From contig NC_087245.1 of NCBI RefSeq assembly GCF_037042905.1, positions 25,980,001 to 26,044,000 of the forward strand: DNA of 64,000 nt, given 5' to 3'. The notes below the pieces were generated by a model. That model did no database searches. It saw only the letters and a program-made list of their open reading frames with translations, and was not told the DNA's origin. Numbering within the stretch: position 1 is the first letter of the stretch; each line of letters begins with the position of its first letter. Made by a program: the position numbers and the translations under genes. The stretch is from Lytechinus pictus (lineage: Eukaryota). This document shows, one piece after another, positions 7,113 to 64,000 of this stretch.

Positions 7113-7143
<31 letters not shown>

Positions 7144-29030: not shown

Positions 29031-29303
29031 GATCAATTTTAGAAAGTCATTTTGAAAAATTTACAAGCGAAGTTTCATCAATTTTTAGTACAAAATGTTA
29101 GGAAATATTATAATAGAGAACAAAACAGATTATTTCAGTCCGCAATAATGAACCTATTTAGTAAAAAAGAAGATGATTACAACTATTGAATTCATATTTT
29201 TAGTGTAATCCAAAGACAAAAAAGAAGGTTTCAAAAATATAAAGTGTCCGGACACCCGACCCCCCATCCTACTACAGACTGTAGGAACAGGTTGGGTGGT
29301 CAA

Positions 29304-30640: not shown

Positions 30641-30873
30641 CTGTTGTTGGTTTGTTAAAGGGCGATACAGTTTTTCGATTCCAGAAAAGATAAACCGTTT
30701 TCAACGATTCGGCATTATCGTGAAATTGGGAACCAGTTCCTAATTTCCAAAGGACACTTTTTCACGACAAGACATGACCTACCTACCTTTTCGAGCTTGT
30801 TCACTGCTTCACCGCAGCTGGCGCGCTGATTCTAGATAAAGTAATCCTTCAAAGAGCTTAGAGCTTCAAAGAG

Positions 30874-31420
30874 CAACTCTATGGAAAACTCCCCATAGAG
30901 TTGTACACATGGTTCCCATTTTAGCGAGTAGAGTAAACTAGTAAACTAGTTTACTCTACTCGCTGAAATGGGAACCAGCGCGTACAACTCTATGGAAAAC
31001 TCCACATAGAGTTGTACACGCAGGTTCCCATTTCAGCGAGTAGAGTAAACTAGTTTAATCTACTCGCCAAAATGGGAACCAGCGTGGAAAATTCTCAATA
31101 GAGTTGTACACGCTGGTTCCCATTTCAGCGAGTAGATAAAGACAGATTACTAGTAATATTTATTTCGTTAGTGATGATTCTCTGACGAAATAAATCTGAT
31201 TAATAAACTGTCTTTATCTACTCGTGAAAATGGGAACCAGCATTTATAATTCAGGAGAATTTTCTTAGATGGTTCCCATTTTGAAGAGTAGATATAGAGA
31301 GAGATTGCCAATGAGATTTATTTCGTCAGTGATGACTCCTGGTGATGACTCTGACGAAATAAATTTCACTAGTAAACTGTCTTTATTTTCACGAGTAGAT
31401 AATACAGTTTACTAAAGTGA
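30874..31420. repeat. Array of alternating inverted repeats
   Basis: Arm TAGAGTTGTACACGCTGGTTCCCATTTCAGCGAGTAGA recurs in alternating orientation. Confidence 0.88.
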
Positions 31421-32959: not shown

Positions 32960-33055
32960 AAGAAGAAGAAGAAGAAGAAGGAGGAGGAGGAGGAGGAGGA
33001 GAAGAAGAAGAAGAAAAAGGAGGGGGAGGAAGAGGAGGAGAAGAAGAAGAAGAAA
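32960..33055. repeat. (AGA)n/(AGG)n microsatellite
   Basis: Direct reading. Confidence 0.9.
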
Positions 33056-35152: not shown

Positions 35153-35363
<211 letters not shown>

Positions 35364-40400: not shown

Positions 40401-41220
40401 AGGCCCAAGAGTGATATCTGTCGTCTATTACGCCAGCCACTATGACTGATTAACCTAGACGTAAAATGTTTCCAAGGTAATTGGTTATATACCAGCTTGG
40501 CGTTTACCAGCAAAAAATGATGTCCTGCCGAGTTCCTACGGGAGTTTACCACAAACAGAAACAGAAACAGAAACATGTCATGAAAATGATGACTATCTTC
40601 CTATTCCTCTTGCTAAGCGCGAGATAAAACAAAAGGGACAATTTAATTATTAGATTAATATCATATTTATTAATGCCTAATGAGGGCGCGAAATCTGATG
40701 ATATTATGGCATAAAAACAAGACATTTCACCTTTGTAATTATGAATAGGATGCATCAGTTAATATATTTTTAACCATTAATGCGAGCGCAAATCGCGAGC
40801 TAAAATTTTTGATAAACTGTCATGAAAAGGGGATTTTAAGTAGTTTGTTGTATAATCAATATTGAAACATACATAACTCGCCAATCAAAATGCCAGTGTG
40901 CAGCGCTAGCTGATACGTCTTGACAATCAGACCTGAAAAGGGATATTTTGAAAACTTTATGGAATACACGATAATAAGAGGACCTGATAAATCAAAATTT
41001 GCGAGCAAGCAGCAAATGTTGATAAAATTATTCAGACCATAAAAGTGACATTTTTACAGAGCACTTTTTAAAATCAATTTGTAAATCACACAAAATAATG
41101 AAAGTTCGATTTCCGAGGTGAAATATGTTTTGTATATTGACTTCCAAACTTGATATTTGAGCTCCATATTGAACATGATATGTAAATCACCTAACAGGCA
41201 AAGCTAGCTGCAGCATGGCG
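37456..41220 (+). mobile_element. Long non-coding interspersed repeat with recurrent ATGCGAGCGCGAAGCGCGAGC motifs, interrupted by inserts (~38195-39640 and SINE 40307-40573)
   Basis: Starts CAGGGGCGGATCCAG + G-run; colinear homology with 46995-48430. Confidence 0.7.
40307..40573 (+). mobile_element. tRNA-derived SINE, family A, second copy
   Basis: Full-length match to 17859-18124. Confidence 0.88.
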
Positions 41221-42154
41221 CCGCATCCGGAGTCGAGTACGAGTACGGTATAGTGAGTCGATCGAGTCGAGTCTGGACGGTAAACTAATTATTAACAAAG
41301 TTGGACCAGACGAGATCGAGGTGCTTTACGAGCAAGGTTCTGGAAAACACTTTGTTCTTGGAGAAATATACCATTAAAATTCTGTGATTTCAGGCACGAC
41401 TGGAATATCTCCTGGATGGAAAGATATTGATTTGGAATTCGAACCCTTTTGAAAAAAGGATTTATAATATCGGATCATTTTCAATGGCTTGGACAGCTGG
41501 GAGACATTTGTGGTTCTTGTGCAACATCTATTTGGTGTGCTTACATCATCTTCGCTTCGCCGAAGCTTCGGGTAAGTTGTCATGATTTTTTGGTGTGGGC
41601 GGGCGGAGAAGGTCGCTCATTGAACAAGCGCTCCCTGGGCCTGGCCGCTGTATGATGGGGGGACCTAAAGCTACGCACTTTGTTTTCAAACAATAAAAAC
41701 TACCCCAATTTTAATATTTCAACAAATATCTTTCACTAATTTGGGAGTACCTTTAGAATCCAATGTCATGAATCGATTACAAAAGAGCAATTACCTACTA
41801 ATTGCTGCTGCCGGTGTGGTGCGATATCAGTTTTGTCGCCCTCTACGTTCGTGAGTGAATTAAGAGTCCCCGGCGACAAGCAGGAATCGGATCGGGAGAT
41901 GGATAAAGGATGGGGGGAGGGGGCAGATGGGGGAGGGGGGATGGCCCCGTAGAGGGAGTACACGACTTGTCCAATGTGGTGGATGTAGTAGGAGAGAGTG
42001 AAGTAATGACAGGTGATATAATAATCAGAGGACTTAAAAAGGGATGATATATATGAAGGGATCAAAGAGGGGGCGCGTGATCGAGGACACGTGCAATGGT
42101 ATATAATTATGTTGATGATGTTGTTTAAGGAATGATATACGTTGATATCTATAT

Positions 42155-43350
42155 ATGGATACAGAATACTTGGATACTATTATATTAAAACATGTATGGA
42201 TATGAATACATGGATACGTGGATACTTGGATACTATTGGATACTTGGATACTTGGATACGTGGATACGCGGATACGCGGATACGTGGATACTTGGATACT
42301 ATTGGATACTTGGATACGCGGATACGCGGATACGTGGATACGTGGATACTTGGATACTGTTGGATACTTGGATACTTGGATACGTGGATACGTGGATACG
42401 CGGATACTATTGGATACTTGGATACTTGGATACGTGGATACGTGGATACGCGGATACGTGGATACGTGGATACTTGGATACTATTGGAGACTTGGATACT
42501 TGGATACTTGGATACGTGGATACGTGGATACGCGGATACGCGGATACGTGGATACTTGGATACTATTGGATACTTGGATACGCGGATACGCGGATACGTG
42601 GATACGTGGATACTTGGATACTGTTGGATACTTGGATACTTGGATACGTGGATACGCGGATACGTGGATACGTGGATACTTGGATACTATTGGAGACTTG
42701 GATACTTGGATACTTGGATACGTGGATACGCGGATACGCGGATACGTGGATACTTGGATACTATTGGATACTTGGATACGCGGATACGCGGATACGTGGA
42801 TACGTGGATACTTGGATACTGTTGGATACTTGGATACTTGGATACGTGGATACGTGGATACGCGGATACTATTGGATACTTGGATACTTGGATACGTGGA
42901 TACGTGGATACGCGGATACGTGGATACGTGGATACTTGGATACTATTGGAGACTTGGATACTTGGATACTTGGATACGTGGATACGTGGATACGCGGATA
43001 CGTGGATACTTGGATACTGTTGGATACGCGGATACTTGGATACGTGGATACGTGGATACTTGGATACTATTGGATACTTGGATACGTGGATACGTGGATA
43101 CGCGGATACGTGGATACGTGGATACTTTGATACTATTGGATACTTGGATACTTGGATACGTGGATACGTGGATACGCGGATACGTGGATACGTGGATACT
43201 TGGATACTATTGGAGACTTGGATACTTGGATACGTGGATACGCGGATACGTGGATACGGGGATCTTAGATACCTTTGGTTACATGGATACTTGGATACGC
43301 GGCTACGGGCACATGCCTACATGAAAACTTAGATACATAGATACTTGGAT
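42155..43350 (+). repeat. GGATAC satellite (8-bp TGGATACG/TGGATACT/CGGATACG units with 10-bp variants)
   Basis: Direct reading, ~1.2 kb. Confidence 0.96.
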
Positions 43351-45589
43351 AAGAACATCAAGGAGTTTTTGATACTCTGGAACATGGAAAACACATGAAG
43401 AAGTGCATGATACTAAGTGTACTTTTAGAACGAAGCATCACAGACCCTAATTACCTTATTTTCAGATAATTGACATCGTCACTTTTAATCTGTATTTTTC
43501 TTGAGAGAAAAGATAGAAAAGGCTACTTTCATCAGTGAATTGTTAAAAATTGGCTGCTCTCTTTATAATTATAACGAGACATATATCAATTCCCTAAGCC
43601 CATATGATTACAATTTGACCAATTAATCTTAATCCTTTTTAGGATTGATTTTATTTAATTAAGTTGATTTCAGTAAACAAAATATAAATAAACTATTTGG
43701 ATTATTATAGATTTTTCAGTCAACATAAAAGAAGGCTAATATAATAACATGTACGAATATGCAGCTTAAAGGTCAAGTCTACCCAAAAAGTTATTGATTT
43801 GAATCAATAGAGAAATAAGAAACAAGCCAATTTCATCAAAAAACGTATGTAAAATAAGAAAGTTATGACATTTGGAAGTTTTTCGCTTATATTTCGCAAA
43901 ACAATTACAATCATGTACAACTCAGTGATAAGTAATAAGACACGAGCAACAGAGAACAACAAAATAGTTAAGTAAGGGGATAATAAGAACGATATATACG
44001 TTTTGGTTATATTAAAATGACCAATCAATTTCAAAACATTGGTTACAATTCGACAATTAATTTCACTCACTCCTGTTGGTAATTGCAACGAGACACATCA
44101 TAGGGCCAATATCACAATCCTTTTTTTAAACAAATTAATTTCATTCCTATGTCTTGTTATGTGAATGTCTCGTTTTGATTATAAATTATCTCATATGACT
44201 CGTTCTATTTATAATTATTGGCATATAATTTACTTCTTTTCAAAAATTATAGAAAGAGTGAACTTGATGAAGAGAAATAGAAGAGGAATTACAGAAGGGG
44301 GAAAATAGGATAAAAGGAGAAGACGGAGGAGGAGAATAAAGAAAAATAAGAATATGAAGTAAGGGAGTGCAATACAAAGTTTTGTGAATGATATATTGCA
44401 TTATTGGCATATAATTTACTTCTTTTCAAAAATTATCTTCCTACTTATACATCCAGAAGACTATCAAGAGAGCATGGAGAACTGCAATTGTAACAGAACA
44501 TCGGCATGCAATGACGCCTATGATATAATATCTCGTTTTAAGCATAAATTGGATTAAACTTTAATTGGTGGGTTGTAATGTGAATGTCTCGTTCTGATTA
44601 TAAATACGGATAAGTATTAGTCCTATATGATTCGTTCTATATCTTAATTTTTATCAAAAATGATTTTTTTTTTTAAATAAATATTTTATGAATTTAGACC
44701 TAGTTAAAAATTGAATAAGTTGACCGGTTTATGAAAAGACATGACTTTCTTAGCGTTTTTTGAAATGGTGAACAGGAATGTTATATCTGACTAAACAATA
44801 TTACTGATTCGAGTGCGAAGCGCGATTTAAAATATGTTATAGGGCCTATTGCGATCGGAAACTTCATATTTTAAGTACGTTTTGTACATAAATTTAGACC
44901 TAAAAACGGACATTCCTTGCTTTTTTTTTGGGGGGGGGGGGTCTTGTTGTATACATTAAAAATTCTTTAGTAATTTACGTTAAATAATGTGTTTAATTGC
45001 CAATATTTATTATCATCTACGATTATGCTGTAACGAAAAATGCATACACGACATACCTACAGTTACAACATCACCTTATTAATAAACTGGTAATTAGATA
45101 CTGTCTTGCTCGAATGCAGTATACTGAAAATCTATCAAAATCGAATATAAAATAAGAAAGTTATGACATTTAAAGATACGCTTATTTTCAACAATTGGAA
45201 ATTTTGAAATATGACGTGCTTGCACAACACATGTAATTCGATTTAATTATGTTAAAAAATGTCACTTCAGAATTCCTTCAGTTCATTGATAAAGAACCAC
45301 CTGTGAATGCCTTTGAGACTATAGGGATACCGTGTAAGATTAATACCCCAAATTCTTGAAAGGAGGGATTAAGATTTAATAGTGATTACGTAATCTATTG
45401 AAGTTAATGACCGGCATGAGACGAGGAAAGAAAAAAATGTGAAAAAGGAATATAAGAAAAAACAGAAATTCAAGTTTATATTCCTAATGCATTTTAAGCA
45501 CTTTGTTTGATCGTGAATGATATTTTATTAATAAGAAATAATAATAAATGATAGCATGTTTATAAATATCGCTTTTCTCAGAACGGCTC

Positions 45590-45890
45590 AAAACGATTTA
45601 CAGCATATTATTGTCCCATGATTCATTTCAATCCCGCATGAAAAGTGCACAATTTCCACATCTTGGGAAGCATTCCTTGCATTCATCGCAGCCTCGAAAT
45701 GGCGCTTGCAAATTCAAGCATACAATAACTTTCGCATCCAACCGGGTACCCATTTAGCACCTGGGTCGAGAGTGGCAAGGTGTGCCGGCAATACGTCTTA
45801 CCAAAGGACGGTATATAGACCGCGGTGAGAATCGAACACACGACTCTCCGTTTACAAGGCGGGAGTCAGAACCACTATACGCCACGACTC
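45590..45890 (-). mobile_element. tRNA-derived SINE, family B-related
   Basis: GGGTACCCATTTAGCACCTGGGTCGAGAGTGGCAA core plus tRNA-like head. Confidence 0.68.
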
Positions 45891-46447
45891 TTAAAAAAAA
45901 GGCCTTCCTGAAAAAGTCGTGCACAGAACATGTTTCTCATAAACATAAAATATGAGCGCGAACTTCTTTCAAACATCAAGGACGAAAAGACCTAAGTATT
46001 TTTCGTAAAAATGAATAGCGTGCACAATCTTCTTAATTAAAGTATTAAAAGCATGAAGAGCGAAATGAACCAATAATTTTAACAAATTGACCTAGCTGAA
46101 ACACTGATATCTTCCCGTCTGTAAATTTCTTCACGCTTTTTCTTCTTTTCCACTATTCTTTGCATTTATTCCATTTTTCCTTTTTACGCAGCCAATAGGG
46201 CGTAGAGATCGCATTCGGCCTCCTGGAATTGCCCATTTACATTTTCTTTTTTAGTCTATATTTTAATTGGTACAAGAGGAGGCAAAGGCGATTAGACACT
46301 GGATTCACAAGTTCGTCCAAAAATTAAAACTGATATTTCTAATCTTACACATTCACAATCTTGGCCAATTATTTTCTGTTCATTATCGCGATTTTTTTTC
46401 CTACTTGATTCTATTTCACCTCATTTCATTCATCTCCTTTGTTTATC

Positions 46448-46533
46448 CAGGGGCCGCGGAACGGTTTTCAAAGTGGGGGGGGGGGGGCTGAAGCTCCCCA
46501 GCCCCCCCCCCCCCCCCGGTTCCGCGGCCCCTG
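46448..46533. mobile_element. Very short MITE (longer relative at 61697-61875)
   Basis: CAGGGCCGCGGAAC...GTTCCGCGGCCCCTG with internal G and C runs. Confidence 0.7.
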
Positions 46534-46994
46534 TAATTCCTATTTCTTTTGTGCTGTTTGTATATCTCTTTAATACTGGGAGGGATAAGCCAGCAGCAGG
46601 GAGAGGAGGGCCGTAATAGCACGACATCCCCCCTTTGTTTTTCTTTTCCACCATATCATTTTTTAAGTTTCCCTTTCCATTTTACTTATATTTCTTCTGT
46701 TTGTACTTTTTTTAAAGGGGTAAGCAAGACCACCTCGCCCCTTGGTCTGCATGTGCCTGTCGAATGCAATTTGCATCCTAACTTCCCGTTTTCTTCCTCT
46801 TTTGTAATATATGTATTAATTTGTGGAAAAAACTATTAGAAAGTAATGTTATAAAGGGAGCCTCGACTTTGCTATTAACATATGCAGTCTTTTTAAAGTT
46901 ACCTTAGATCCGAGATAATTTATTGTCATGTATAAAATGCACAAAATCTGCTTTCAAAAAGTGAATACTATTACACCGACAAACACAATTGTTT

Positions 46995-48430
46995 TTAGCC
47001 TACATATTTCAACAATCAAATAATGTGAGCGCAAAGCGCGAGCTGAATATTTCTTACATTCCCAGCTATATACAGGACATTCTAAGCACCTTTTAAAATC
47101 ACGAACAGGATAGGGGTATGACTATACACTTGATGTGATCGCGAAGCGCGAGCCGAAACGAAATTCGACATCTCACGTTTTGTAAATCATGAAAAGGATG
47201 CAAGTGGATAAATGGATAACATTCCTACATTAATAATTTGATAATCTGATCTGAAACTGGAACAAGATTCGTATCTAAATAAATATGCGTGCGTGTGTTT
47301 AGATTCAAACCTAGAATCTGGACATTCTAATTACATTCTTTATCATAATATCAATAATAAGAGCGCGATCCGCGAGCTAAAGATATTTGATTTTCCGATC
47401 CCCCAAAAAAAGTTAATTTAAGCGCAATTACGAATTGGATATGGATCCTGCTTAATAAATGATGCGAGTCAAAGCGCAAGTTGATATTTTTATCAATACA
47501 TATATTTCCAGTTGGTTGCGACCGGGAAATTTTAAGGACATTTTTGTTTTTGTCGAGAGATGAAACTTGTCGATATTCCGTTCTGAAAAAAAAACCGGAC
47601 AATGATTATTAGGAAATATTGAAAATATTATTTTCTTACTTATTAATCTAATAAGCCCAATGAGGTCGCGAAATTAATATCAAGGTAAAAAAAATGGATA
47701 TTTTGTAATCATGAAAAGGATGCATGGGTTAATATACTTTAAAGAATACTTTAAAAATAATGCGAGCGCAAATTGCAAGCCGAAAATTTTGATAAACTGT
47801 CAAGAAAGAGGAATTTAAAATAATTTGTTACAATTGATATAGGTATACATTACTCCCCAATGAAAATGCAAGTGCGCAGCTTTAGCTGATACTATTCAGA
47901 ATCAGATAAGCCTAAAAAGGGATATTTTTCAAAAAAATATGGAATACACGAAGAGAAAAGTTACTTGACGAATTAAATAATGCTAGTGCGCAGCGCGAGC
48001 GGAAAATGTCGATATTTAGACCATAAAATATAGTCATTTTACAGAAAACTATAAAATATATTTGTAAATCAAACAAATTGAAAACTCAGTGTCCGATAAA
48101 TATTTCATACATTTACTTCAAAACTTGATATTTTAAGCTCAATATAAGCCTATTGAGCAAGTTATGTATATCATAGATTAGGCAATGTGAGCACAAAGCG
48201 AGCGAAAATCTAAAATAGTGACTTGAATTAAATCCCCCCCTCATCTTATTTTATTCACTCGTCTTACTCCTCTTATTTTCCCTCTTCATTTTCTATTCTC
48301 TTTTCTCTTCTTTTTCCTCTCTTTCCATTTTTTCTTGTTTGCTCGTTCCAAAAAGTGGGGGGGGGGGGCATTTGATATCAAATTCCAAAAAGTGAGGGGA
48401 AGCGTCTCCCTGTCCCCCAGGGATTTCCAC
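46995..48430 (+). mobile_element. Second copy of the GCGCGAAGCGCG-motif repeat (further fragment 48990-49320)
   Basis: e.g. 47759-47810 aligns with 40779-40835. Confidence 0.7.
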
Positions 48431-49318
48431 CAATGTATGCAATTTGATTTAAAATAAAAGAAAACCCTACATCGTCTTTGTAGTCGATTTTTTTTTTTTA
48501 ATAGCGTACTTTCATGACGAATTACTTCATTCTCGCCTGCTCCTAAATCGGATTTAATAAGAAAATCAATGTTTCTTAAAAAAAAACCGCACCCCAAACC
48601 CCAAATAACACCCCTAAATTCATTTAAAAAAAATATATGAACGATAATTTTCTTGGAGTATTCGCAATTTGTCCGAAAATTATTCTTATTGTCCTCGTCC
48701 TTAAATTTACCACTCGTGACATTGTCCTAAATGTCTCCGGTTCTGTCCTAATACGATCTGCATGCTGTCCGCGCCGAACGCCGACAAATTGATTTAGATA
48801 ATCTTGTCCCAGGACAGTTCCAGGAATGTCCTACGACAATACGCAGACAGTCCTGGTCGTGTCCTAGGACAAGATCATTTGCATAATCTTTTACGGAATT
48901 TGGTTGCGGACAGCATGCCGAAATGACAAAAGTAGCTTCCGCAACCCTTCCTGGTCTTGTCCGCGCCCTAGTGGAAAACCGCCTTAAAAAAACAAGCTGT
49001 GTGTCTCGAACAATTAAATGTGAGCGCGAAGCACGAGCTTAATTTTTTGTATATTGACATGATAAAGGAGCATTTTGACAAATTTTGGAAAGAATTTCCA
49101 AAGAGGATAGGTATCTCACAAATCAAACAATGCGAGTGCGCAGCGCGAGCTGGAAACTTTTATATAACAATTTGTGTAAATCAAACAAAATAATGAAAGC
49201 TTGAGGTGCGAGCTAAAACATTGTGTGCAAATTGATTTCAGAACTGGATATATGAAATGTCATTTAATTCTCTTGAATGGGAATCATTACAAAGGCAATG
49301 CGAGCGCGAAGCGCGAGC

Positions 49319-49862
49319 CACTTCCATTCACGAGTGGATACCATGCGCGACCATGGGGTCTCGAAAAGCACCCTAAACACGTAATTTCCATATTCTGAAA
49401 ATGCGCCCCTTAACAAGTATTGGCGCGTGAAACCCTACCCTACAAGAATTGGTAACAAAACGATACTCTTGGCAAATGTTCCCTGAAATGAACCCCTAAA
49501 CAAGTACAGGAATGTTTTATTGTTACGGGTCCTTCGGTCGTCGGCTTTACCTTATTTGGTTTAGTACGACCCCACCTTCTACACCTCGCGCAAGTCGTGA
49601 CTCTAAATACGAAGTGTTGGGGCAAAAAGGACATCCTTTATAAAACATTTTAATTTTGTTTTATCATCCCCGCGAATTCGACCCTAAACACGTAATTTTC
49701 CTAGCGAAATAGATACCCTTTTTTCATTATTTTTGTGTTTTTGACACCCTTATCACGTTACGTACATAACGTGCCCTATCGTGAAAAAGACATCCTTTTT
49801 ACGTGTTTTTTTTTTTGGTCGCGCATGGTATCCACTCGTCAATGTAAGTGCCCCCCCCGCGG
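49319..49862. mobile_element. MITE with ~35-bp TIR
   Basis: CACTTCCATTCACGAGTGGATACCATGCGCGACCA / TGGTCGCGCATGGTATCCACTCGTCAATGTAAGTG; internal ACCCTAAAC repeats. Confidence 0.8.
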
Positions 49863-50619
49863 GGTTCAAACAAGGACAGAAGATGAGATATGCCTATATT
49901 ATACGAATCGCTTCATATTTATCCTTCTAAACATTCAGAATCCATGTCATATTCATCATAATCTCTAGATTTATAGAGAAAAAACAGCAAAAATATTGCT
50001 CTACAATTCTAAAAAGAAGGGTATATACATGTATATATTATTTTAATTATACGAACCAAAAGTCCAGTTTTCTGTCTTATAATTTACTGTGAAAATCACA
50101 AGAATTTGATTTAAAAAAAATAGGTAGGCCTGTACAATTTTATTTTTAATTAAAAAAGAAACAAAAATAGAATGGACAAGAAAGGAAGAATATAAAAGAG
50201 AAAAGAAAAATATATTTAAAAAAAAAGAAGAAAAGAAAGGAGAAAAACAACGTAAAGGAAAAGGAAAAGTGTTTAAACAAGGACAAAAAAATGAGCTATA
50301 TGCCTGTATTGTCTTGAAAATGATTTTTTTTAAATAAGATGACTGAGACACGTACTGCACTGGGCCATGTTAAACCAAGAAAATAATATAAACCAACAAA
50401 ATTCTACTTTTAGTTAACGACAGATCGACCGACTGAAATGTGGATGAAAATATTTTCTGATTCTCCCTTCTTTTCCCCCTTTTCGCGAAAGGTGCATGGA
50501 TCCTCCCCTGTATAACATACCCCCACGACTCTCCCTCCTTCCACCCCCCCCCCCTTTGGCGAAAGCTGGATACTCCCCTGTACCCCCTCCCCCGTATCCA
50601 CAAACATTATCCCAGCTGC

Positions 50620-50890
50620 CCGTATCCTCGTATCCACGTATCCGCGTATCTTCGTATCCATGTATCCAGTTATCAGTACGGTAGTAGTATCCACGTATCC
50701 GCGTATCCACGTATCCTCGTATCCATGTATCCAGTTATCAGTACGGTAGTAGTATCCACGTATCCGCGTATCCACGTATCTTCGTATCCATGTATCCATT
50801 TATCAGTACGGTAGTAGTATCCACGTATCCCAGTATCCACGTATCCTCGTATCCATGTGTATCCACGTATCTTAGTATCCATGTATCCGC
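50620..50890 (-). repeat. GGATAC satellite, inverted copy with a ~65-bp higher-order unit
   Basis: GTATCCAC units with TTATCAGTACGGTAGTA repeated three times. Confidence 0.9.
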
Positions 50891-51132
50891 TTTTATCTCA
50901 AAAACGTAATTTCTAAAAAAGTTAACAAGTACCGGTACGTCGTATCCGTTGTTTTCTCGTTTTAAAATCTAGAGATTTTTGTAATCGATTCATGACATTG
51001 GATTCTAAAGGTAAGCCCTAATTTGTGGCAAACATTCTAAAGATCATTAACCAAGAAGAAAATATCGCAAAACTCACTAATACGAAAATCCCGCCGAGTT
51101 TTCCGAACACCTCTTGATTTCGCCACCCGATG

Positions 51133-51461
51133 TAGAAGGGGTCCTAAAGCTACGCACTCGATTTATCATGCAAAAAAATAGTATTTCTTGTGCCTCAATT
51201 TCTAAAATACATTCATATTATTATAGGATAAAATGAAATTTAAGCGAATATAACTCCAAAATTCCAAACAGTTGTTGGTTTCTCTGCATTTAGAGATTTT
51301 ACTGCAGCCTCTGAAGAAAAAATTGAATAGGAATCGTTCGTCACTCTGCAGTCACAGTTCCACACACAGAGTGCGCATTTGCCCCGGGCATTTGCCATAA
51401 AAACTGTATGCGCGATGAGTGCTGCGTAGCTTTAGGACCCGCGCAGCTTTAGGACCCCCTA
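51133..51461. mobile_element. MITE with GGGGTCCTAAAGCT TIR
   Basis: GGGGTCCTAAAGCTACGCA...TGCGTAGCTTTAGGACCC-GCGCAGCTTTAGGACCCCCTA; same end motif at 41657. Confidence 0.7.
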
Positions 51462-51922
51462 CCATATAGGCTGTCGTAGTGTTACAGTGTAATTATGTGT
51501 GGGTCCCTGCTAGACATGATGTCATGATGATATGGGATCGATTGTGCTCATATTTTCTCATTTATGGTGTGTAAACGTAGATATTTCATTCTAAACTTTG
51601 ATTAAATACCACATCATTTGGAAAATACAATCACTTGTCTTGACTCTTGCACTTTGCAGCCTCGTTTCCATGTCTGACTGTCAGTGTCATGTCACTGACT
51701 GTTTGAAAGGGGAAGTTCATTTAGAGCAGGTCAGACCAAAAGTTTGTTGAAAAATACCAGAAAAGTAATGAAAGATTAAGAAATTTATTAGAATGTTAAG
51801 TGTTTTTTTTAATAAATATGCTAGCGCACAAACATCCATTTGACCCTTCCATTCTCGAGCAGTGAGCTAAAAACTAACAACAGGCGGCCTTATTTACCCC
51901 ACTCTCCCGCGGACATTAATAA

Positions 51923-52482
51923 AGGTTAAGTTCACCGCAGGAAAATTCTGATTTGAATCGATAGAGAAAAATCAAACAAGAATAATGCTGAAAATGTTAT
52001 CAAATTTTGATGTAAAATAAGAAAGTTATGACATTTTAAAGTTTCGCTTATTTTTCACAAAACAGTTATATGCACAACTCAGCAACATGCAATTGAGAGA
52101 GTCGATGATGTCCCTCAATTACTATTTCTTTGTTTGTTAATGTTTGAATTATACAATATTTAAATTTTTACAGATTTGATAAGGACCAGCTTGACTGAAC
52201 CATAAAATGTTAAAATATTTGCAATTCCCCATGTTCATTGAGGAAGAAAACTTGTTTCACCTTCCATTGAGGAGAAAATTAGAATATTTCATATAATACA
52301 GTAAAATACAAAAGAAATAGTGAGTGACGTCATCAGTCCCCTCATTTGTACTGACCAGGATACTTGTGCATGTAACTTTCCTATTTTACATCTGATTTTG
52401 ATGAAATTTTCAGTGTTATGTCTGTTTACATTAATCTCTTTTTGTTCAAATCAACTTTTTTTTGTTGGGGTGGACTTGTCCT
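51923..52482. mobile_element. Kolobok-like non-autonomous element (related fragment at ~43770-43930)
   Basis: AGGTTAAGTTCACC/GGTGGACTTGTCCT ends, ATAA/TTAA flanks. Confidence 0.65.
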
Positions 52483-53410
52483 TTAAATTGACATCTTCAA
52501 GATACATTTGCAGACCTGTAACATGTACTGAGAATGTTTTCTTGAAGTTCATCTGAACTCAGATAATTTTGAACATCTATTGCAGTGCACCATTGTAGGC
52601 CTACTGTCAAGTGATATGCATTGATATTCACTATTTGAATATTATTATCAAGTGAATTGAATTCTACTTGAATTAATTTTGGTGCTATAGTAGATCTTTT
52701 GTATAGTTACAGAAAAAAAAATAATGAAGACCAGCAGAAAGCTTTTGGGATTAATGAAGAAAAGAAGACCTCATTTGCAAGAACCTGCTTAGAATTGTAT
52801 AGCACAATTTCTGTATTCAATCTGTACATAATACACGTGTATACCAAATGAATAGAAAAAAAAACGATCATAACTCTGTTCCACCAATGTGATATATAGT
52901 GTATGAATTAACATGTTTTCTCTCAAATGGCCTACTACATGTATATTGGGTATCAAAAAGCTTGTTAAAGTAAATACAGGTATTCCATGCACATTTTATT
53001 GTTGCATTGAGAGTGTACACAAGGAGAAAATAAGTAGTTTTTCTAGGAAAAAATATTTGCTATGACATAGTTGTTGTTGTTGTTGTTGTTATGACATAGT
53101 TCATTTTCCAGCTGACGTCACGTACATGTATACTTATTACTATATCCCATTTTGTATAGGTTTTTCCACCCCATACGCGCACTATGCTAAAGATATGTAC
53201 ATTGCCGTGCATGGCAGCTCAAGCAATTATTAAAGCCATTGTGCGAATCTGACTGGGTGCACCTACATGTAGCCTATGTGTGTGGGGGGGGGGGGGGGTT
53301 TGATGAAATTTTTCATATAAAGTTACTAGCCTTTTTTCTTTCTATTTTATTTATTTTTTATTTTTTGATGTGATGAGGAATGATAGGGGTGGAAGAAAGA
53401 CATGTATTGA

Positions 53411-53998
53411 AGGGATGGTCAAGACTGAAAATATTTATATCTAAATAAATAGAGTAAAATTCACCTGTAGAGCAAAGTGCTGAAAATTTCATCAATGAAG
53501 TTATTGAATTTTAAAGTTTGTAAATATTTTGTGAAAACGTTTATAGTCATGAATATTCATTAGGTGGGCTGATGATGTCACATCCCCACTTTTCTTTTTC
53601 TTATGTTATTATATGAAATCATAAATGTTTCATTTTTTCATACATGTGTAAATAATGTGTCTCCATTATGATGATATAAGTTGCGGCAATAAATAACTAA
53701 TGCACTTTAATCAGTTGTCAATCCAATTGTTTTAGTTCTTGGTAGAACATTTTTTAATAAACCTAATTTCATAAAATAAAATGCAAAAGAACAAGTGGGG
53801 ATATGACATCATCAGCCCACCTAATGAATATTCATAAAGACATGCCTAGAACTATTTCACCGGAATAATGCAAATCTTTAAAATTCAATAACTTTGTTAT
53901 TTGTTATCCGATTTTGATCAAATTTTCATCATTTTGCTCTGTATATATATTTTACTCTATTTATTGAGATAGAAATATCTCCAGCCCGGACCATCCCT
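53411..53998. mobile_element. Kolobok-like palindromic element, copy 1
   Basis: AGGGATG/CATCCCT ends, TTGA/TTAA flanks, long inverted arms; homologous to 59570-60190. Confidence 0.78.
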
Positions 53999-54306
53999 TT
54001 AAAGGGGGAGTGAACTGTGTGTGGTCTCTCAATGACTGTGTGTTATAAATATTTACATAGTCTTAAAATATAAATTTCTCAGACATGTACATGTACATGT
54101 ACAAAATACAGAATACATTGACCTATAATTGTATTTGTGTAGAGAAACAAAAATGTTTTGAGAGGAAAAGTTATTGTTTTGCTACTTGGTAACATAATTA
54201 TTGCAGTATAAATGTAATGAGTACTTAATAGCATGTTATCATTCAAGTGGATCTATATTACTAGACTACACTAGCATTATGGGTCAGGAAACTGGCCTGG
54301 GTGGTG

Positions 54307-55991
54307 TTTTTGTCTCACCTGCATAGCAGAGTGAGACTATAGGCGCCGCTTTTCCGACGGCGGCGTCAACACCAAATCTTAATCTAAGGTTAAGTTTTTG
54401 AAATGACAGCATAACTTAGAAAAAAGGATATGGACCTAGTTCATGAAACTTGGTTATAAGGTTGATCAAGTATTACTGAATATCCTGCCTGAGTTTCAGG
54501 TCACATGACCAAGGTCAAAGGTCATTTTTAGGCCATTTTAGGGTCAATGAACTTAGACCATGTTGGGGAGAATCAACATCAAAATCTTAACCTAAGGTTA
54601 AGTTTTTGAAATGTCATCATAACTTAGAAAATATATGAACCTACATGTAGTTCATCAAACTTAGACATAAGGTTAATCAAGTATTACTGAACATCCTGCT
54701 TGAGTTTCATGTCACATGACCAAGGTCAAAGGTCATTTAGGGTCAATGTACTTTGGCCAAATTGGAGGTATCTGTTGAATTACGATCATAACTTTGAATG
54801 TTTATGGAGCTGATTCATGAAACTTAGACATAAGAGTAATCAAGTATCACTGAACATCCTGTGCAAGTTTCAGGTCACATGATTAAGGTCAAAGGTCATT
54901 TAAGGTCACTGAACTTTGGCTAAGTTGGGGGTACATGTATTTGTTGAATTACCATCATAACTTTGAAAGTTTATTGGTCTAGTTCATAAAACTTGGACAT
55001 AAGAGTAATCAATATCACTGAACATCTTGTGCAAGTTTCAGGTCACATGAGTAAGGTCGAAGGCCATTTTTTAAGGTCAATGAACTTTGGCCAAGTTGGG
55101 GGTATTTGTTGAATTACCATCATAACTTTGAAAGTTTATTGGTCTAGTTCATAAAACTTGGACATAAGAGTAATCAAGTATCACTGAACATCCTGTGTGT
55201 ATTTCAGGTCACATGACCAAGGTCAAAGGTCAATGAACTTTGGCCATAATGGGGGTATCTGTTGAATTACCATCATAACTTTGATAGTTTATGGATCTGA
55301 TTCATGACATTTGGACATAAGAGTAATCAAGTATCACTGAACATCCTGTGCAAGTTTCAGGTCACATGATCAAGGTCAATGAACTTTGGCCAAGTTGGGG
55401 GTATATTTGTTGAATTTATTACCATCATATAACTTTGAAAGTTTATTGGTCTAGTTCATAAAACGTGGACATGAGAGTAATCAAGTATTACTGAACATCC
55501 TGTGCAAATTTCAGGTCACATGACAAAGGTCAAAGGTCAATGAACTTTGGCTAGGTGGGGGGGGGGGTATCTGTTGAATTACCATCATAACTTTGAAAGG
55601 TTATGGATCTGATTCATGAAACTTGGACATAAGAGTAATCAAGTATCTTTGAACATTTCGTCCGAGTTTCAGGTCACATGACCAAAGTCAAAGGTCATTT
55701 AAGGTCATTGAACTTTGGCCATTTTAGAGGTAATTATTAGATTGCTGTCATAACTTTCAAAGTTTATAGATATAGTGTATAAAATGTGGATATAGGGGTA
55801 ATCAAGTTTCACTGACAAGTTTTAGGTCACATGATCAAGGTCAAATGTCAATGAACGTACATGTAGTACTGTATCATTATATGAATGGTGTTTTTTGTGA
55901 ATAATTATTTGATAGTAGTTTTCAAAGTCAGCACTGCTGCTATATTGAATCGCGTGATGCAGGTGAGACCGCCAGAGGCATTCCACTTATT
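54307..55991 (+). mobile_element. Helentron-associated / DINE-1-like element, family 1, second copy with ~10 tandem units
   Basis: Ends near-identical to the reverse complement of 6217-7192; longer internal array. Confidence 0.82.
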
Positions 55992-56840
55992 CATAAAGCT
56001 GTTCGTAAAGTTACGCACAGCTACATTGTATATGCACGACTGGAACCTGTTCTTAGGCAAAGTCATTCGTAACTTACAAACAGCTTTATGAAATGGGCTC
56101 CAGGTATGAGTAGTACTACATGTAGTTGAGGACTCAAGGTGGCACTATTGGTTCGTATACAATGTAGATCTGCTTTAAAACAAATTCTCAGAACAGGCTA
56201 AAACTATTCACACATCAAAACCCTCAGGCTATTGGCCCTCGGGATAAGGGTTTCCTTCGATGTGAATAGTTTTAGCCAGATCCTCGAGCGTCATAGTATA
56301 ATACATTGTATTCTGTATATTATGAAGTGTATCAATGCCACTTTGCTCAATAGCAATGCAGTATTAATATCCAAATCTAAATAATCAGTATTCTCAGATT
56401 TCCAGAAATAATCAGTAATAAATTCCTGAAGATCAGGTATGTGTGTTAAAACTTAAAACATACTTTTGACTTTAAGTACTTGATGCTGAAATATGTTCCG
56501 GTTCTATGATTATAAGCCAAATAACCAATACAATTGTTTGTTACACATAGTCATTAAAAAAAATCAATAAATCAGGCTGTATTCTTGTATTTCTATGCTT
56601 TACTTTCCTTGGCTTGGGTACACCAGAATAATTTTCCACAAAATCCATCTTGGTAAAACAGACCAGAAGTGATGAATGCAACTTTCACACACTTTATAAA
56701 CTGCACCTACATAATGTACAGTGTACATTGGGCACCTTTTTGTATAACATGTTTTGTGAAGACATACTGTACATTTTATAACAGAACAATTTTGAGCAAC
56801 TCTTTTCTACCATTTCATTCTTTCATAAATACTATGTGTT

Positions 56841-58646
56841 TTTTTGCTTATCCAGCCCAAATGGATGAGCCTATATGCCGTGGCGTGGCGTCCGTCATCT
56901 GTCGTCCATCCACAATTTCAAAATGCTTCTTCTTCATTTCAAGTCCGACTTTAATTCTGTTTGCTTTTGTGATAGCACTAGATGGGGGGATTCAAAATTT
57001 CTACACATAATTTTGTAACTCATTAAATATGCTAATTTATGCGCATTTTTCAAAATTCACAAATAATGCTTCTTTATTTGTTTACCGATTTTGATTTTTT
57101 CTGGTAGAGCTTCATGAGGTTCACCAAACTTTCACACAGAATTTTTAAATTATGCCTAGAAATTTTTTAATGCTAATTTATGCAAAATTAATTTATGCTT
57201 TAATATTTTTCCAAATTCACATAAAATGCTTATTCTTTATTTCTTGACCAATTTTGATTATTTTTCATCCATCTGGTAGAGGGTCACCAAACTTCCACAC
57301 AGAATTTTGAAATTTTGACAAGAAAATTATGCTAATTTATGCAAAATTTATTCATAAATCACAAAAATGTGTTTTCTTTTTACATGTAATTTGTTGATAA
57401 ATTTCAATGTTGTTTGCTTTATATGATAGCTCTACATGTAGGTGGGGATACAAAATTTCTCCACAGAATTTTGAAACTCATTGATTATGCTAATTTATGC
57501 ATATTTTTCAAAACTCACAAAAAATGCTCATTTATTTGTTGACAGATTTTGATTTTTTTTTTGTTCCATCTGAGAGCTACATGACTAACATGAGGTTCAC
57601 CAAGGTTCTACGCAGAATTGAGAAATTTTGACTAGAAAATTATTTATGCTTATTTATCACCAAGAAAGCTTCTTCTCTGTCATTTTTTCATCAATTTTAA
57701 TTCTTTTTCCTCAATTTATGTCACCAATATAATTCACTACAGCGTCAACTAGGGCTGTTATCGATAACCTCTTTATTGCTATTCTTGTCGATAATCGCTT
57801 GTTTTTTGCCACTTACATGTAGCGATATCGATAACCTTTCTCTCGTTGTCGATAGTACCTGCTATTATGTAGGGACATGACAGTGATTTTCTGCAATTTC
57901 ACAGAAACAGCCTTTTAAAAGTGGTTTTTCAAACGGAAAATGACGGAAAACATATTTTTCCTCAAAATGCACAGAACAGCAACAGAAATCACTCAAAATC
58001 TCAACAAAATACGAATATTTACTAGCCACAAAACACAATCTCACTTCGCTATAGGCCTAATCATGACAATCCAAACATCGTGACTGCACTCGACTCTATT
58101 CGATCGTATATCGAAAACATTCACAAGCGCAAGCTCAATTTAAGCGAAGTACCAACGTAGAAGGCAGCACATGGCCTTGTGTTGCTGCCCTCGACGTTCA
58201 AAGATATACAGCAAAATGGTGGATACATGTACATGTAGGTGAAAGATGTTGCCTGCTCAGATGTCCAAAAAGCCCCAAAATTATCGATAAAATTTCATCC
58301 AGCCCTAAAAATAATGCTAATAAAGTGAAAGGTGAGGTTGTATTCATGCTAAATATGTTTATTAAAAGATGTTGTTTACATCCGATGAAACGTTCTTGGT
58401 ACAGTGGCAGATACAAATTTTGACAAACGCGAGTAGTGTCATCGCTATAATGCATAAAAAAATGCGTATTGATTATGTTCTTTTGTCGATCGATATCGGT
58501 AAGATATTTTTAGCGATATATCGACAGAGAATTTTCTTAATGATAACAGCCCTACATGTAGTGTCAATTGGGCTGAAGTTAAAAATTGTGTTAAATTTGT
58601 TTGCGAGATGCTGGATGAGCTCCATATCAGTGATGTGCTCGTTTTT
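56841..58646 (+). mobile_element. DINE-1/Helentron-like element, family 2, interrupted by a MITE
   Basis: TTTTT-GCTTATCCAGC (56846) with 5' hairpin and CCGT-type tract, internal tandem units (TATGCTAATTTATGC), 3' GCTGGATGAGC (58610) + hairpin + TTTTT. Confidence 0.7.
57750..58554. mobile_element. hAT-like MITE nested in the family-2 element
   Basis: 13-bp TIR TAGGGCTGTTATC/GATAACAGCCCTA, subterminal ATCGAT repeats, degenerate 8-bp TSD GCGTCAAC/GTGTCAAT. Confidence 0.75.
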
Positions 58647-59569
58647 ACATATGTAGGAACAAACCAGTCTTCTCTGCAAACCCTTATAAATTGTAGTTTT
58701 TCATTCATTACTATCTTGTAAAAAAGGCACTTTATTCCTGTCTTTTATGAAAAATCTAGTTCTGCACTTCTGGGTCAAAACATTATTTGTGACATCCAAA
58801 TATAAAGTCAGTTAAAAGAAAAGAAACATTTTTTTTGCGCAAGAAAAGTGATTTGCATGAATCCAAAAAGCTCTTTCTGTACACGGACAAGCAAAAGTTT
58901 GGCCTTCACATTTCATTTTTATAATCTAAAATATTATTTTACAGGTTAATCAGGCTAATTCAGATTCTCTGATGGAACCTCAAATCCACATATTTTGAAG
59001 CTCAAAGCCATGGTGATGAATCTACGTCTGTCCTCTCTGTATAAAACGTATAGATCTGCAAAGAACATTAAAATGGTATAATTATATGTATGTCTCAAAA
59101 CAAACTACTCATAGTGATAGCCAGTCACAATGATGCACAAACTTCATTTGTAAGTACATGCAGATGAGATGAGTTACCATGGTAATCTGGACGTGATATT
59201 TTCTTTTACCTATTCCAGAAGCTAATTCAATCAGTGTGAGAAGGAACTGGGGCTCAGCTTTCCCTTTTAATGTTGGCATTGCATTATAGAGGTGAAGAGA
59301 GGTCAAGTTTATTTTTTCTCCTTTCAGGACTAAGCCTTGACAGCCATGCAGACATGTGTACACTCAAGTCCTTTCAATACACTTCTACACTGTACATAAG
59401 GACATGTTGATGTTGAGAATGATTTTAACTGCCTGCATCGGGGTGTAGACTAGAGAATAGAGAGGTTACACTGATGTAATTTTGACAAAATCTGTATTCA
59501 TGTCAGCCTGGAATGTGCAAGTGTCTGCTGCTGTCTGCTGTACTTACAAGTACTTGTTGAAGCTTGTAC

Positions 59570-60190
59570 AGGGATACTCCGTGCTCAAGATATTTATATC
59601 TCAATAAATAGAGTAAAATTCACTGAGCAAAATGCCGAAAATTTGATTAAAATCGGATAACAAATAACAAAGTTATTTAATTTTAAGATTTGCATTATTC
59701 TGGTGAAACAGTTCTACATGTACATGTAGTCATGTCTTCATGAATATTCGTTAGGTGGACTGATGATGCCATATCCCCACTTGTTCTTTTTTATTTTATT
59801 ATATGAAATTAGTTTTATTCAATTTTTTTTACCAAGAACTACATGTAAGGATATTGGATTGAGAACTGATAAATTGCATAGTTATTTCTTGCTGCAATTT
59901 ATTTCATCATAATGGAGACTCATCATTTACACATACATGAAAAAATGAAACAATTATGATTTCAAAACATAAGAAAAAGGAAAGTGGGGATGTGACATCA
60001 TCAGCCCATGTAATAAATACTCATGAAGACATCATCTACATGTAGGACTGTTTCACAAGAATAATGCAAATTCTTAAAATTCAATATCTTCGTTATTTGT
60101 TATCCAATTTTGATCGAATTTTCAGCATTTTGCTCTGTGAATTTTACTCTATTTATTTAGATATAAATATCTTCAGCCCGGAACATCCCT
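59570..60190. mobile_element. Kolobok-like palindromic element, copy 2 (inverted relative to copy 1)
   Basis: Aligns to the reverse complement of 53411-53998; ends CATCCCT-TTAA. Confidence 0.78.
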
Positions 60191-63100
60191 TTAAAATTAT
60201 TGAGAACTGAAATATATGCAGGTCTCATTTGTTTACCCCCACCCAGGTAAAGTTCGTGTAGTTTCTGTATATTAAAGCTGAAGACTTGACTTCGTACAAT
60301 AGCCAAAAGATGAACATTATTCTTGCCTCACATATAACCACCTCCAACACTGCAAATCCTGCAACCTCCACATGTAAAGTACATGTACATACATGTATAT
60401 ATAGGACAACATTCCTGTATGTTCTTTCAGATTTATAGTATTAATCTGTGCATAGACCATTTTTTGCCAGGTACAAGTAATTTGCTTCCACAATGGCCAA
60501 ATGCTATTTCACTCAGATTTTCTGTGACCGGGTGGATATAAGAAGTCATCTCCATGTACATGTATGTGCCTCCGTGTAGAATGTGATTTGTGTGAGAACT
60601 ACAGTATACTATTACATGTGCACAGGTAATGGACATTTATGTGACCTTGAAACTCTTGTATTATACAGAGGAAAGACCTTGAACAATATTCAGAAAGAAA
60701 AGATCAAATAAATGAGATAAATTCTTTTGATATCAATGCCACTTTGAACATCAAAAGCTATTCGGGAGTTGTATTTTTGGAAGGCCAGGTATCTGTATGG
60801 ATGCCCTATTAAATCTACATGTGTATGTAATCTCATTTTATTGAAGCAGACAGAAATGAAGAGGAAAGGTCTCTGTTCACAGAAGAATTCTCAAATCTAA
60901 TTACCGGTATTGGTATACATGTATGACATCAGCATACTCTGTATGTGGAGCCCTTGTTATTGGCATCTTTCTACACTTCCCATCAACTGCATCATGGGAT
61001 GTCCAGGAGGATTATTAAACTAATTCTTTAACCAAACATGAACCACATGATGGGCTGTTTTGTTTTTTGTTTATTTTTTTTTGTTTCTGTGGATGAATTT
61101 GGGACTGTGGCAAATTCTGAATTTTACTTTTTAATTTATAACAAAATATATATTTTTTCTCATACATTTGGCAAACATCATATTTTCCAAATTTCCATCA
61201 CAAATTTAATGTGTAGGCCTACAGACTACAAGCACAAACTATGAAATTTGTAGGACTTCATTCAGCTCTAGCCACGTGAAGTCCATGAAAATGCATTTAT
61301 AAGTAAGGCCTTAATATAAATCACTGCACTATGCAAATTGATTGTAAAAGCCTGAATACTCGAATTTTCTGGATGGGAAGTAGGCCTACAGTGTACAATT
61401 CTACATCATTGTCACCACGTAAAAGAGATGTGCATATACATGTAATGTATGTACCTGTACCAGAGGTTCATTGTACACTGATGCAACATATTTTGGACGT
61501 GAAATCTGAAAGATGTAATTGGCATTTCATCCTGTCTCCTGAACTCATCTTTGTACATCTGTGCTTCGCATCAGGTCTAGTCTAGCTTCAAGCCTTGAAT
61601 GACTTTAAAGGGCAAATTGAAATGAAATACATGTATTAAACTTTTGTAAGGATGCCCTACTACATAATTTGTGTATTACCCTTCATAATGATGATCAGGG
61701 GCTGCGAAACGGTTTTCAAAGTTGAGGGGATGAACCAAAAGTGGGGAAGGGGCTGCCCATGCAAAAATCTCAATCAGATGGTCATTTTAACATTTTTTTA
61801 CACGGTTTTTGAAAAAAGTTGGGGGGGGGGGGCTGAAGACTCCCAAGCCCCCCCCCCCCCCGGTTCCGCGACCACATACATACATAAATGTGCCCAATTT
61901 CAAAATCTCATACATGATACTTTCCTGAAGGCTAAACGTTCAGTAGGAATTTGATTCAGCGTGACTTTGAATGACAAGCAACTTTGGAGACTACATGTAC
62001 TTTGAGATGTGGTGTAAAAAGCACATCAGTTCATGGGTGATTGTGAATGTGAACAGTACCGTTCCTTGAAATGACCCTCACCTATAGTGTTCTATGGGAT
62101 TAGGCCATACTACATGTATACATCGGATTATGGTGTGTTCTAGGGTTATATGGTGGCCATGAGAACGTTTACCAGTTTTGCATGATCCTTTGACCTCACT
62201 GCCCAATGCTGAGTGTTATGTTCCCATAGCAACCATGTTGAAAAAGGTTGCTTTTATATTTTTAATAGGGCAAGGGCACTTTTCAAAAGGCTCATATTTA
62301 TACCACACAAATTGGAAAAATTAAAAGGGCACAAAAATCTCTCGAGGAAAGTGTGAAAGGGCCATGCTTGAGACCATCCAAGGCCATGACCTTGGATTAA
62401 TTTGAAGGCCTGGGTTTGCTGCATTGTTGTGAATGGGTTCACTCCACTGCAAATCGGCTCAGTGGGGACTGGTTCAGAGAGTGATCCGATCGGGGTCTTT
62501 TACTTTTGTTTTTAACTTGAATGGTATGGTGTATGCTAGAAAAACCTTGAATATTAATTTCAAAAGTAGATCAGTTTAATAGATGTCTCCTTGTCGTCAG
62601 ATGTAGATTTCGTTTTGGGAGTACATAATTTCATGTACATGTATGTACAGTACATAGTCTGTCAGCTGCTCCCATTTCAAGATTTGTTACAATTTCTATG
62701 ATATTCTCTATAAGCCAATCAAATTGACAACATTAACATCTTTAAACTGTCATTGAAACTTTGTTATTCAAATCTACATTTAACAAGCTTAAAAAATGAA
62801 GCCCCACATCAGAATCATTGAAATTAAGCATCAATTGCATTGTTTTTATTATGTTGTCACTCTCAGTCTTTTTCAATATATGCACAGCATCCTGCACTTT
62901 AAATTATCGTCAAGTATAATTATCTCTGTTTCATGATATACATGTATTCCATTTGGAATAAAACTGCACTTGTGTCTCCAAAGTGAGACACTCTACCATA
63001 CAAACTGACCATAAGTTTACCTACATTTGTACATGTACATGTATTCACAGTTCATTGCCATCACCAGCCAAATCAAAGCATCTCCTTTGATGACTGCGCA

Positions 63101-64000
63101 CCCTTTTCACCTCTATGGTTCATTAATGAAGCATGTAACAATCAATAATTAGTTCCCATCATTGACACAATACAGTCTGGCAGCAAGTACGGTATGTTTT
63201 TGTAATTTATAATGATGAGGAGAAAGGGAGGAGAGGTTGCCATGTGAAGGCCTACTTGTACATGTACAAACAAAGACATAATTTTCAGAAAAATATAGAA
63301 CCTTTTCAATTTTTTGTCAGGACTGAGAAATAGGAGGCGCCGCTGTTCTATACACAGTATGGCTGCAGCGGCGGAGTCCTCAACATCAAGTCTTTACTAT
63401 GGTTCACAAGTTTTTAAAATTTTGTCATAACTCTGAAAATGTACATGTAAGGACCTACATTAATTAATTATGGTTAAGAAGATTTTGAATTTTTATAAAA
63501 TGCCTAATTCAAGTCCCTATTCCGTATAATTGTCAGGTATCAGCAAGTGGATTAATTAGTAAGTATATTGAATTTGGTTACTAAACCAAGGTCATACAGG
63601 TCATTTGGGGTATAAATAAACTGCTGTTTTGATTTGATTCATTGATTAATTTTCGTCTACTAACAATATAATATAACATAAATATAACAACAAATGTTAA
63701 ATTGAGATTATTTACATCACTCTGCTTTGGTTTTAATATTGATACATATTCATTTTGTGTGTGAGACACTTTATGTAAATTGAATTACTTTTTATAAGTG
63801 TTATAAATAGGTTGTTGACCTTTCATAACTTGTAGAAATACATGTATGAAGAAAAACTAATTGATTTGAACAGTCATTCAGGGAAGCCTCTGAATTATGC
63901 CTGAATTTGTTTGGTCTCAATCTCATAAAAAATATCTTGTTCCTTTTGTAATTAATTAAGTGAGTAATTGAAATAGTAAGTAAGTAAAATAAGTAAGTAC

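Follow-up and report, generated by a model that had tools for sequence, protein, structure and literature searches.

Recurrent CATGTA insertions at TA dinucleotides in the Lytechinus pictus genome as likely excision footprints of TA-duplicating transposons

In the stretch of Lytechinus pictus DNA analyzed here (64,000 nucleotides of contig NC_087245.1, assembly GCF_037042905.1, positions 25,980,001 to 26,044,000 of the forward strand; henceforth the window), repeats of several families have gained precisely the six letters CATGTA next to a TA, whereby the TA becomes the octamer TACATGTA. These scars, as we call them, are insertions, neither deletions nor products of slippage, and it is likely, in our view, that cut-and-paste transposons with CA...TG ends and a duplicated TA target left them behind in the germline as excision footprints. 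The region in which the initial annotation noticed them, 54307-60190, holds 14 copies of TACATGTA. The window as a whole has 68 scar sites and 75 copies of the octamer, where Markov models of order 1 to 4 would predict 1.9, 3.7, 6.2 and 15.3, and no 8-mer is commoner in it, poly-T being tied.

The direction of the change is best seen in repeat A, one of two high-copy, non-coding repeats of the region (the other being repeat B), whose units provided the frame of reference in which insertions show. At the TA of repeat A that is scarred at 54932, the genome has 8,599 exact empty copies as against 54 with an insertion of 1-30 nt; exactly CATGTA was added in 23 of these 54 (23 of the 24 six-base ones), and the remainder are local duplications, single bases and a few variants of the form TA-x-TA. 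When a tree was built of 110 repeat A units with the insert removed, the 26 scarred units required 21 changes. A single origin was allowed by none of 200 bootstrap trees (the bootstrap was not fully settled), and shuffling gave a mean of 23.7 changes with 28 of 500 shuffles as low as 21, so that the scars are hardly clustered on the tree. Several scarred units sit among near-identical empty ones, and some of the events must thus be recent. It is the preponderance of empty copies, together with these independent gains, that identifies the scars as insertions. The initial annotation was therefore right that the repeats had gained the six letters: all ten strings of the five repeat pairs it had compared were found at, or a few bases from, where it had placed them, and the consensus is without the motif, which disposes of the deletion it had named as the way in which its proposal could fail. 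Not every scarred copy represents a new event, and inheritance is real in places, since a subfamily of repeat A carries a fixed 8-base scar-like insert, TACACATGTA, at about 40 of about 90 loci (counted by eye among the matches listed, 100 of 487). This subfamily spread its fixed insert, and later scars landed atop it.

The same insertion stands out across repeats in general. An all-against-all comparison of 830 kb, from which 26 events that had been selected for were set aside, yielded 327 polarised insertions of at least 2 nt, among which the change from TA to TACATGTA is the commonest class of any length, accounting for 20 of the 48 six-base insertions; two pairs among these 20 (loci L008 and L011) were possibly inherited from a common parent. 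The earlier proposal had also hinged on +CATGTA being more frequent than other insertions of its length, and this count speaks in its favor. At the same sites as the scars there are minor variants of the form TA-x-TA, in which x is CTG, CAG, CG, C or CATTG, and such variants have likewise been published as transposon footprints (10.1101/659086; here and below, statements on the literature pertain to passages of the sources named). Of the 4,822 TAs in the first 15 kb of the four genes described below, 138 (2.9%) bear a scar. Multiple scars are present at 17 of these 138 sites, which is far from what a 2.9% rate would give (p 5e-7) and is less so if scarred sites are three times hotter than others (p 0.08). 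Some nested scars are of mixed length (6+5 and 6+7 bases). The suggestion that old scars were targeted again is partly supported by the number of multiples, although slippage of the six-mer could contribute to it.

Genome-wide, TACATGTA occurs 224,046 times in this 812-Mb animal assembly. Order-2 expectations of 0.030 and 0.045 per kb, obtained from two samples of ~360 kb each, put the chance level at ~24,000-37,000 and the excess at ~190,000 copies, and in the sampled DNA the enrichment is 9-18-fold. The reversed motif, counted as a control (85,448), did not serve as the chance level, since it overlaps the motif's tandem frame. The dense zones contain 157 exact copies, whereas one-mismatch neighbours are in excess by ~53, which suggests that most scars are young relative to a divergence of a few percent.

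That the scars are footprints is supported by the existence of elements with CA...TG ends, by a filled site at a scarred TA and by a symmetric target preference. TA-flanked elements of this kind, which the initial annotation had presumed to be the source, exist elsewhere in the genome in two families described here; the empty, filled and footprint states that it had proposed to look for are present at one homologous TA of repeat A, as paralogous copies. This second hot TA was searched for any insert starting with CA, and the matches listed (100 of 487) comprised one filled site besides single scars and nests of scars that differ in length; by eye count, exact single scars make up about 22 of about 90 loci. 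Read at both ends, the filled site consists of repeat A, TA, CAGTG, ~4.1 kb of further sequence, CACTG and TA, after which repeat A resumes. Five other CA-starting matches from this search lay outside repeat A and are due to chance. The inserted element belongs to a non-coding family of ~4 kb (hereafter the CAGTG family) with 25-bp inverted ends; the two copies of it that were read lack a long open reading frame (ORF). A TA flanks every one of 39 further ends, 40 of 169 candidates having been scored, many with identical scores. The family showed no similarity to the Tc1 or pogo loci examined, and metagenome contigs gave 0 matches to it. Its copies (L201/L216, L217-L256) have long tracts rich in purines as well as GC-rich subterminal hairpins, and one of them (L256) has a scar-like insert near base 410 that is missing in the other copy.

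Compared with the average TA, the flanks of scars differ at +1, +2 and +3 (p 2e-17, 1e-8 and 1e-8), and they do so symmetrically, T at +3 and A at -3 being raised (0.47 vs 0.33 for T at +3) and A at +1 lowered. The scar profile (A.15, C.22, G.25, T.38 at +1; T.47 at +3) appears compatible with the target profile of the CAGTG family (A.17, C.25, G.08, T.50 at +1; T.69 at +3), no difference being detected at the three positions with 36 distinct flanks and weak power (p 0.15, 0.67 and 0.07). The second family, a young DD34E Tc1 of 1,896 bp (the DD34E spacing was read from its 342-amino-acid ORF), is flanked as TA-CAC...GTG-TA at 43 of 43 ends read, 150 of 729 candidates having been scored, many of them identical. 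It has the right ends but the wrong target preference and scar-poor flanks, and was thus rejected as the main donor. Hundreds of near-identical copies of it exist (L091-L120), with many inverted derivatives that have two right ends. A pogo-type DDE_1 transposase gave 76 matches from many low-copy families, several with open frames of ~500 amino acids (L171-L200); one family begins TA-CC, and among 30 of the 76 loci no CA-ended element could be delimited, the ends of two families lying outside the loci. When 775-830 kb were searched for inverted repeats that are TA-flanked and end in CA, only a few miniature elements came up, none of them tied to scar-dense DNA. As to the identity of the donor, the CAGTG family would fit the flanks, and several CA-ended families probably contribute.

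We propose the following course of events. An element would insert at a TA to give TA-[CA...TG]-TA; a 2-base staggered cut would then excise it such that two terminal bases stay on each flank, and end joining that preserves the overhangs would produce TA-CA-TG-TA, which is palindromic because the element ends are inverted repeats. The new TAs of a scar could be hit again, giving rise to double scars. End joining in some eggs, as known from Xenopus work, can preserve and fill such overhangs. Joining of this kind would explain why the insert is constant, symmetric and independent of the flanks, and also why two further palindromic classes, TAGGCCTA and TACCGGTA, are in parallel excess. Both are 7.5-9-fold enriched in the sampled DNA, equally in CpG-poor and CpG-rich DNA, unlike TACATGTA, and elements with GG or CC ends and a different targeting probably left them. 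If every end sequence leaves its own scar, their excess is to be expected, as is a pogo-type family that begins TA-CC.

The scars are distributed unevenly. Over 264 kb around the window, the richer a bin is in CpG the fewer scars it has (rho -0.54, 132 bins), their density dropping from 3.3 scars per 2 kb where the CpG observed/expected ratio is below 0.4 to 0.18 where it exceeds 1.0, and 19 of the 20 polarised scars lie in CpG-depleted DNA as opposed to 67% of TA sites in the same repeats (p 0.007). CpG depletion alone is insufficient for a high scar density. In four of four genes scars peak near the putative 5' boundary, which was placed by means of ORFs, base skew and the CpG switch rather than RNA; two of the four are the genes of the window, an IBR-domain gene on the minus strand and an LDL-receptor-family gene on the plus strand, both pointing away from a CpG-rich spacer, and two of the four had been picked for being scar-rich. 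Successive 5-kb bins from this boundary have 2.55, 3.45, 1.85, 1.15, 0.60 and 0.74 scars per kb, as compared with 4 scars in the whole 22.5 kb of the spacer, and the LDL-receptor-family gene shows a second rise ~40-65 kb in. The "very high density" of the initial annotation thus holds for the first 10-15 kb of CpG-depleted gene bodies and not in general.

Several observations weigh against an origin by excision. First, the four-base forms TACATA/TATGTA are not enriched (0.9-1.0-fold). Second, a transposase was not found for the CAGTG family, two full copies being without a transposase-like ORF, and its match to the scar flanks is a weakly powered failure to reject and not proof, while T occupies +1 in 0.86 of the targets of the most abundant young Tc1, which never have C or G at +3 and depart from the scar flanks at all three positions (p 3e-8, 0.004 and 7e-4). 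Third, filled sites are scarce, with none among 17 loci at the first hot TA and one verified at the second. Fourth, the flanks of surviving elements carry 2 scars in 10.8 kb (CAGTG family) and 9 in 37.6 kb (young Tc1), whereas the genome mean would predict 3 and 10, and the density of 5' zones 28 and 98; they are thus at or below the genome mean and at about a tenth of the density of 5' zones. Finally, comparison of 56000-63900 with four public runs, in which at most 0.28 of its words are present, yielded no allelic or orthologous series of empty, filled and scarred states, paralogous repeats being dominant. Known footprints leave two things unexplained, namely the dominance of the +6 product in the absence of +4, and the location of surviving elements away from the scars.

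A rival explanation is a process independent of transposons, in which a nuclease or repair step at TA, tied to early transcription elongation, would insert a fixed CATGTA. The near-uniform product at the 54932 site, the tracking of gene 5' ends in all four genes and the different distribution of surviving elements would all be in keeping with it. However, no template is apparent for the constant insert except the element ends, a filled element is present at a scar site, the symmetric flank preference resembles that of a real TA-targeting family, and the parallel scar classes match other element ends. We thus rank such an undescribed process below footprints as less likely, and on the whole as unlikely.

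An excision origin has to account for scars that are in roughly 15-20-fold excess at gene 5' ends, where surviving elements are not. Scar density cannot be raised above the neutral one by selection against filled alleles alone, and early gene bodies would therefore have to differ either in a higher insertion rate or in another repair outcome; targeted insertion with fast loss of the filled alleles is the favoured of the two. Insertion would then have to be directed at the chromatin of the early transcribed part of gene bodies, and filled alleles would soon be lost by re-excision or selection, i.e. in a hit-and-run manner. In its complete form, in which the chromatin in the first 10-15 kb of methylated genes transcribed in the germline draws the elements in, the elements nearly always leave and one overhang-preserving repair follows, a regime that could also underlie TACATGTA in Phytophthora, this proposal is tentative, and we regard it as possible rather than probable.

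In Phytophthora, the identical octamer (motif-1 or AM-20) is very abundant near genes (PMC3520976, PMC11134190). It lies upstream of 12,070 genes and has been read as a transcription factor site, of Irx type, a footprint origin having been raised and dismissed on the grounds of abundance (PMC3520976); PsMyb37 binds it (PMC11134190). Those passages make no comparison of empty and scarred copies, whereas here abundance and insertion origin coincide. By analogy, the motif could be a factor site favoured by selection in first introns, which would agree with the enrichment of scars near gene starts. Selection, however, cannot create a precise 6-base insertion, and the motif is found at many different TAs in young, high-copy repeats, at ~3% of all TAs in dense zones and in the company of decayed one-mismatch neighbours of many kinds. 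As an explanation of the scars, this one is very improbable, although some of them may later have been co-opted as factor sites.

Slippage, or fold-back template switching, would make the palindrome from local sequence. The event at 20960 does lie in a TA-CAT context, CAT is the commonest C-starting flank (41 of 141), and doubles could come from slippage of the six-mer, but most polarised events have no CA or TG in their flanks to copy, and the site with a G-run on its left and TYTG on its right gained the same insert 23 times. For single scars slippage is refuted by these flank-independent events, as the initial annotation had argued, and overall we see very little likelihood in it. That TACATGTA was ancestral and shortened by deletion, or derives from TACGCGTA through decay of CpG where DNA is methylated, is practically untenable despite the association of scars with CpG-depleted DNA and the inherited scar of one subfamily, being refuted by the 8,599 empty vs 23 scarred copies, by the scatter over the tree and by the sister products TATGCATA and TACACATA, which are not enriched (0.8-1.2-fold).

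Footprints of TA transposons are well known, and the octamer itself is on record as a rare product of Tc1 (PMC3520976, citing Eide and Anderson 1988). The initial annotation, which had called it a described Tc1-type footprint, was thus correct as far as the record goes, though the form is rare and not typical (PMC3520976, PMC13148408). Tc1 and Tc3 of C. elegans share with the present case the TA target and the CA...TG ends, and excision there generates 2-nt 3' overhangs, which for Tc1 are non-complementary (PMC4490562). The typical product in C. elegans is +4, with 78% in soma, and +6 is rare (PMC13148408); the footprints of Tc3 are TACATA/TATGTA (10.1101/659086). In the germline, where polymerase theta does the repair, 103 events led to 26 products, and 45 wild isolates yielded fewer than 10 excisions (PMC4490562). 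Here, unlike in C. elegans, one product dominates, with about 190,000 copies in one assembly, and the +4 scar is not the commonest. Sleeping Beauty, whose footprints are TACAGTA/TACTGTA, resembles our case in leaving a stereotyped TA-x-TA scar, made of its ends, alongside a series of minor variants (10.1101/659086). These two forms occur in our data as minor polarised insertions, 1.3-1.4-fold enriched as compared with 9-18-fold for TACATGTA. Sleeping Beauty differs in its 3-base stagger and +5 product. Its genomic distribution is near-random. In animals, no account of such a genome-wide class of scars was found in the literature covered, which lies mostly outside subscription journals.

DNA transposon excisions normally vanish from the record, and ~190,000 uniform scars would amount to a countable history of transposition. 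From such scars it becomes testable, by sequence, how often DNA transposons move, where they land in the germline before selection removes them, and which repair pathway operates in the germline or early embryo. The scars also caution that mutation, and not selection for a regulatory motif, can be the source of a palindrome that abounds near gene starts. Were the hit-and-run regime true, scar density would map, as a fossil record, the regions where germline transcription starts, the scars would count past transposition far beyond the surviving copies, and +CATGTA would be a leading indel class of early gene-body introns; the same process could then underlie the "promoter motif" of Phytophthora, factor binding having been acquired later.

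The features of the window are collected in Table 1. Paralogous alignments exist for 16 of its 68 scar sites, and the counts are alignments to repeat units, in which overlapping loci may count twice.

Table 1. Scars, host repeats and gene zones in the window
Feature	Position	Strand	Remarks
Scar-dense 5' zone, RBR ubiquitin-ligase gene (IBR domain)	17600..28800	-	30 scars in first 10 kb; further in, 0-4 per 5 kb
Recent 242-bp tandem duplication	20544..21036	+	copies identical except for the 6-base scar at 20960
TAGGCCTA, 10 copies	21853, 23460, 25918, 28315, 35624, 36603, 52596, 58052, 61214, 61381		
TACCGGTA, 4 copies	26017, 28830, 50930, 60902		
Scar, end of truncated repeat A copy (example of the initial annotation)	28399..28406	.	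right flank diverged
CpG-rich intergenic stretch	29000..51500	.	internal control, 4 scars in 22.5 kb
Scar-dense 5' zone, LDL-receptor-family gene	51800..64000	+	contains the region of the finding; recognisable coding exons begin ~8 kb past window end
Repeat B, unscarred copy	53411..53998	+	~590 bp inverted-repeat miniature element, TTAA-flanked
Repeat A	54311..55969	+	non-coding, short inverted ends, ~nine tandem units of 150-210 bp; thousands of units genome-wide
Scar TA-CATG-TA in repeat A, CTAG-type target	54642..54649	.	535 empty vs 7 scarred alignments
Scar, GGGGG-TA-TYTG site of repeat A	54932..54939	.	383 empty vs 31 scarred alignments, the 31 mostly from loci chosen for carrying that scar
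Scar, 3' part of repeat A (absent from the initial annotation)	55858..55865	.	36 empty vs 7 scarred alignments
Scar, third repeat family	57814..57821	.	six letters absent in 23 contigs from each of two related-organism runs; paralogous copies
Double scar	58224..58237	.	1 empty alignment
Repeat B, scarred copy	59570..60190	-	aligned to family consensus; scars at 59715-59728 (double), 59840 and 60037 (single)

In repeat B, the double scar at 59715 has 44 empty vs 1 scarred alignment and the scar at 59840, which four substitutions adjoin, 31 empty and 0 scarred; the set of best-matching copies is biased against insertions and showed scars only in the window copy. The scar at 28399 has only three alignments, none gap-free, because its right flank has diverged. 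The duplication at 20544-21036 either arose very recently or represents two haplotypes joined in tandem by the assembly. Repeat A, seen at 54311-55969 and 6297-7160, has a T-rich left junction besides its short inverted ends and its internal tandem units, and may be akin to non-autonomous elements of the Helentron type. The minus-strand RBR ubiquitin-ligase gene is presumably ANKIB1-like and the plus-strand LDL-receptor-family gene presumably LRP1-like. The CpG-rich spacer between the two genes harbors a satellite with an 8-bp unit (GGATACGT type) at 42206-43307 and 50621-50888, in opposite orientations, and at least 11 dispersed copies of a short GC-rich near-palindrome (GCGAGCGCGAAGCGCGAGC type) in 37629-49318, which are confined to this spacer.

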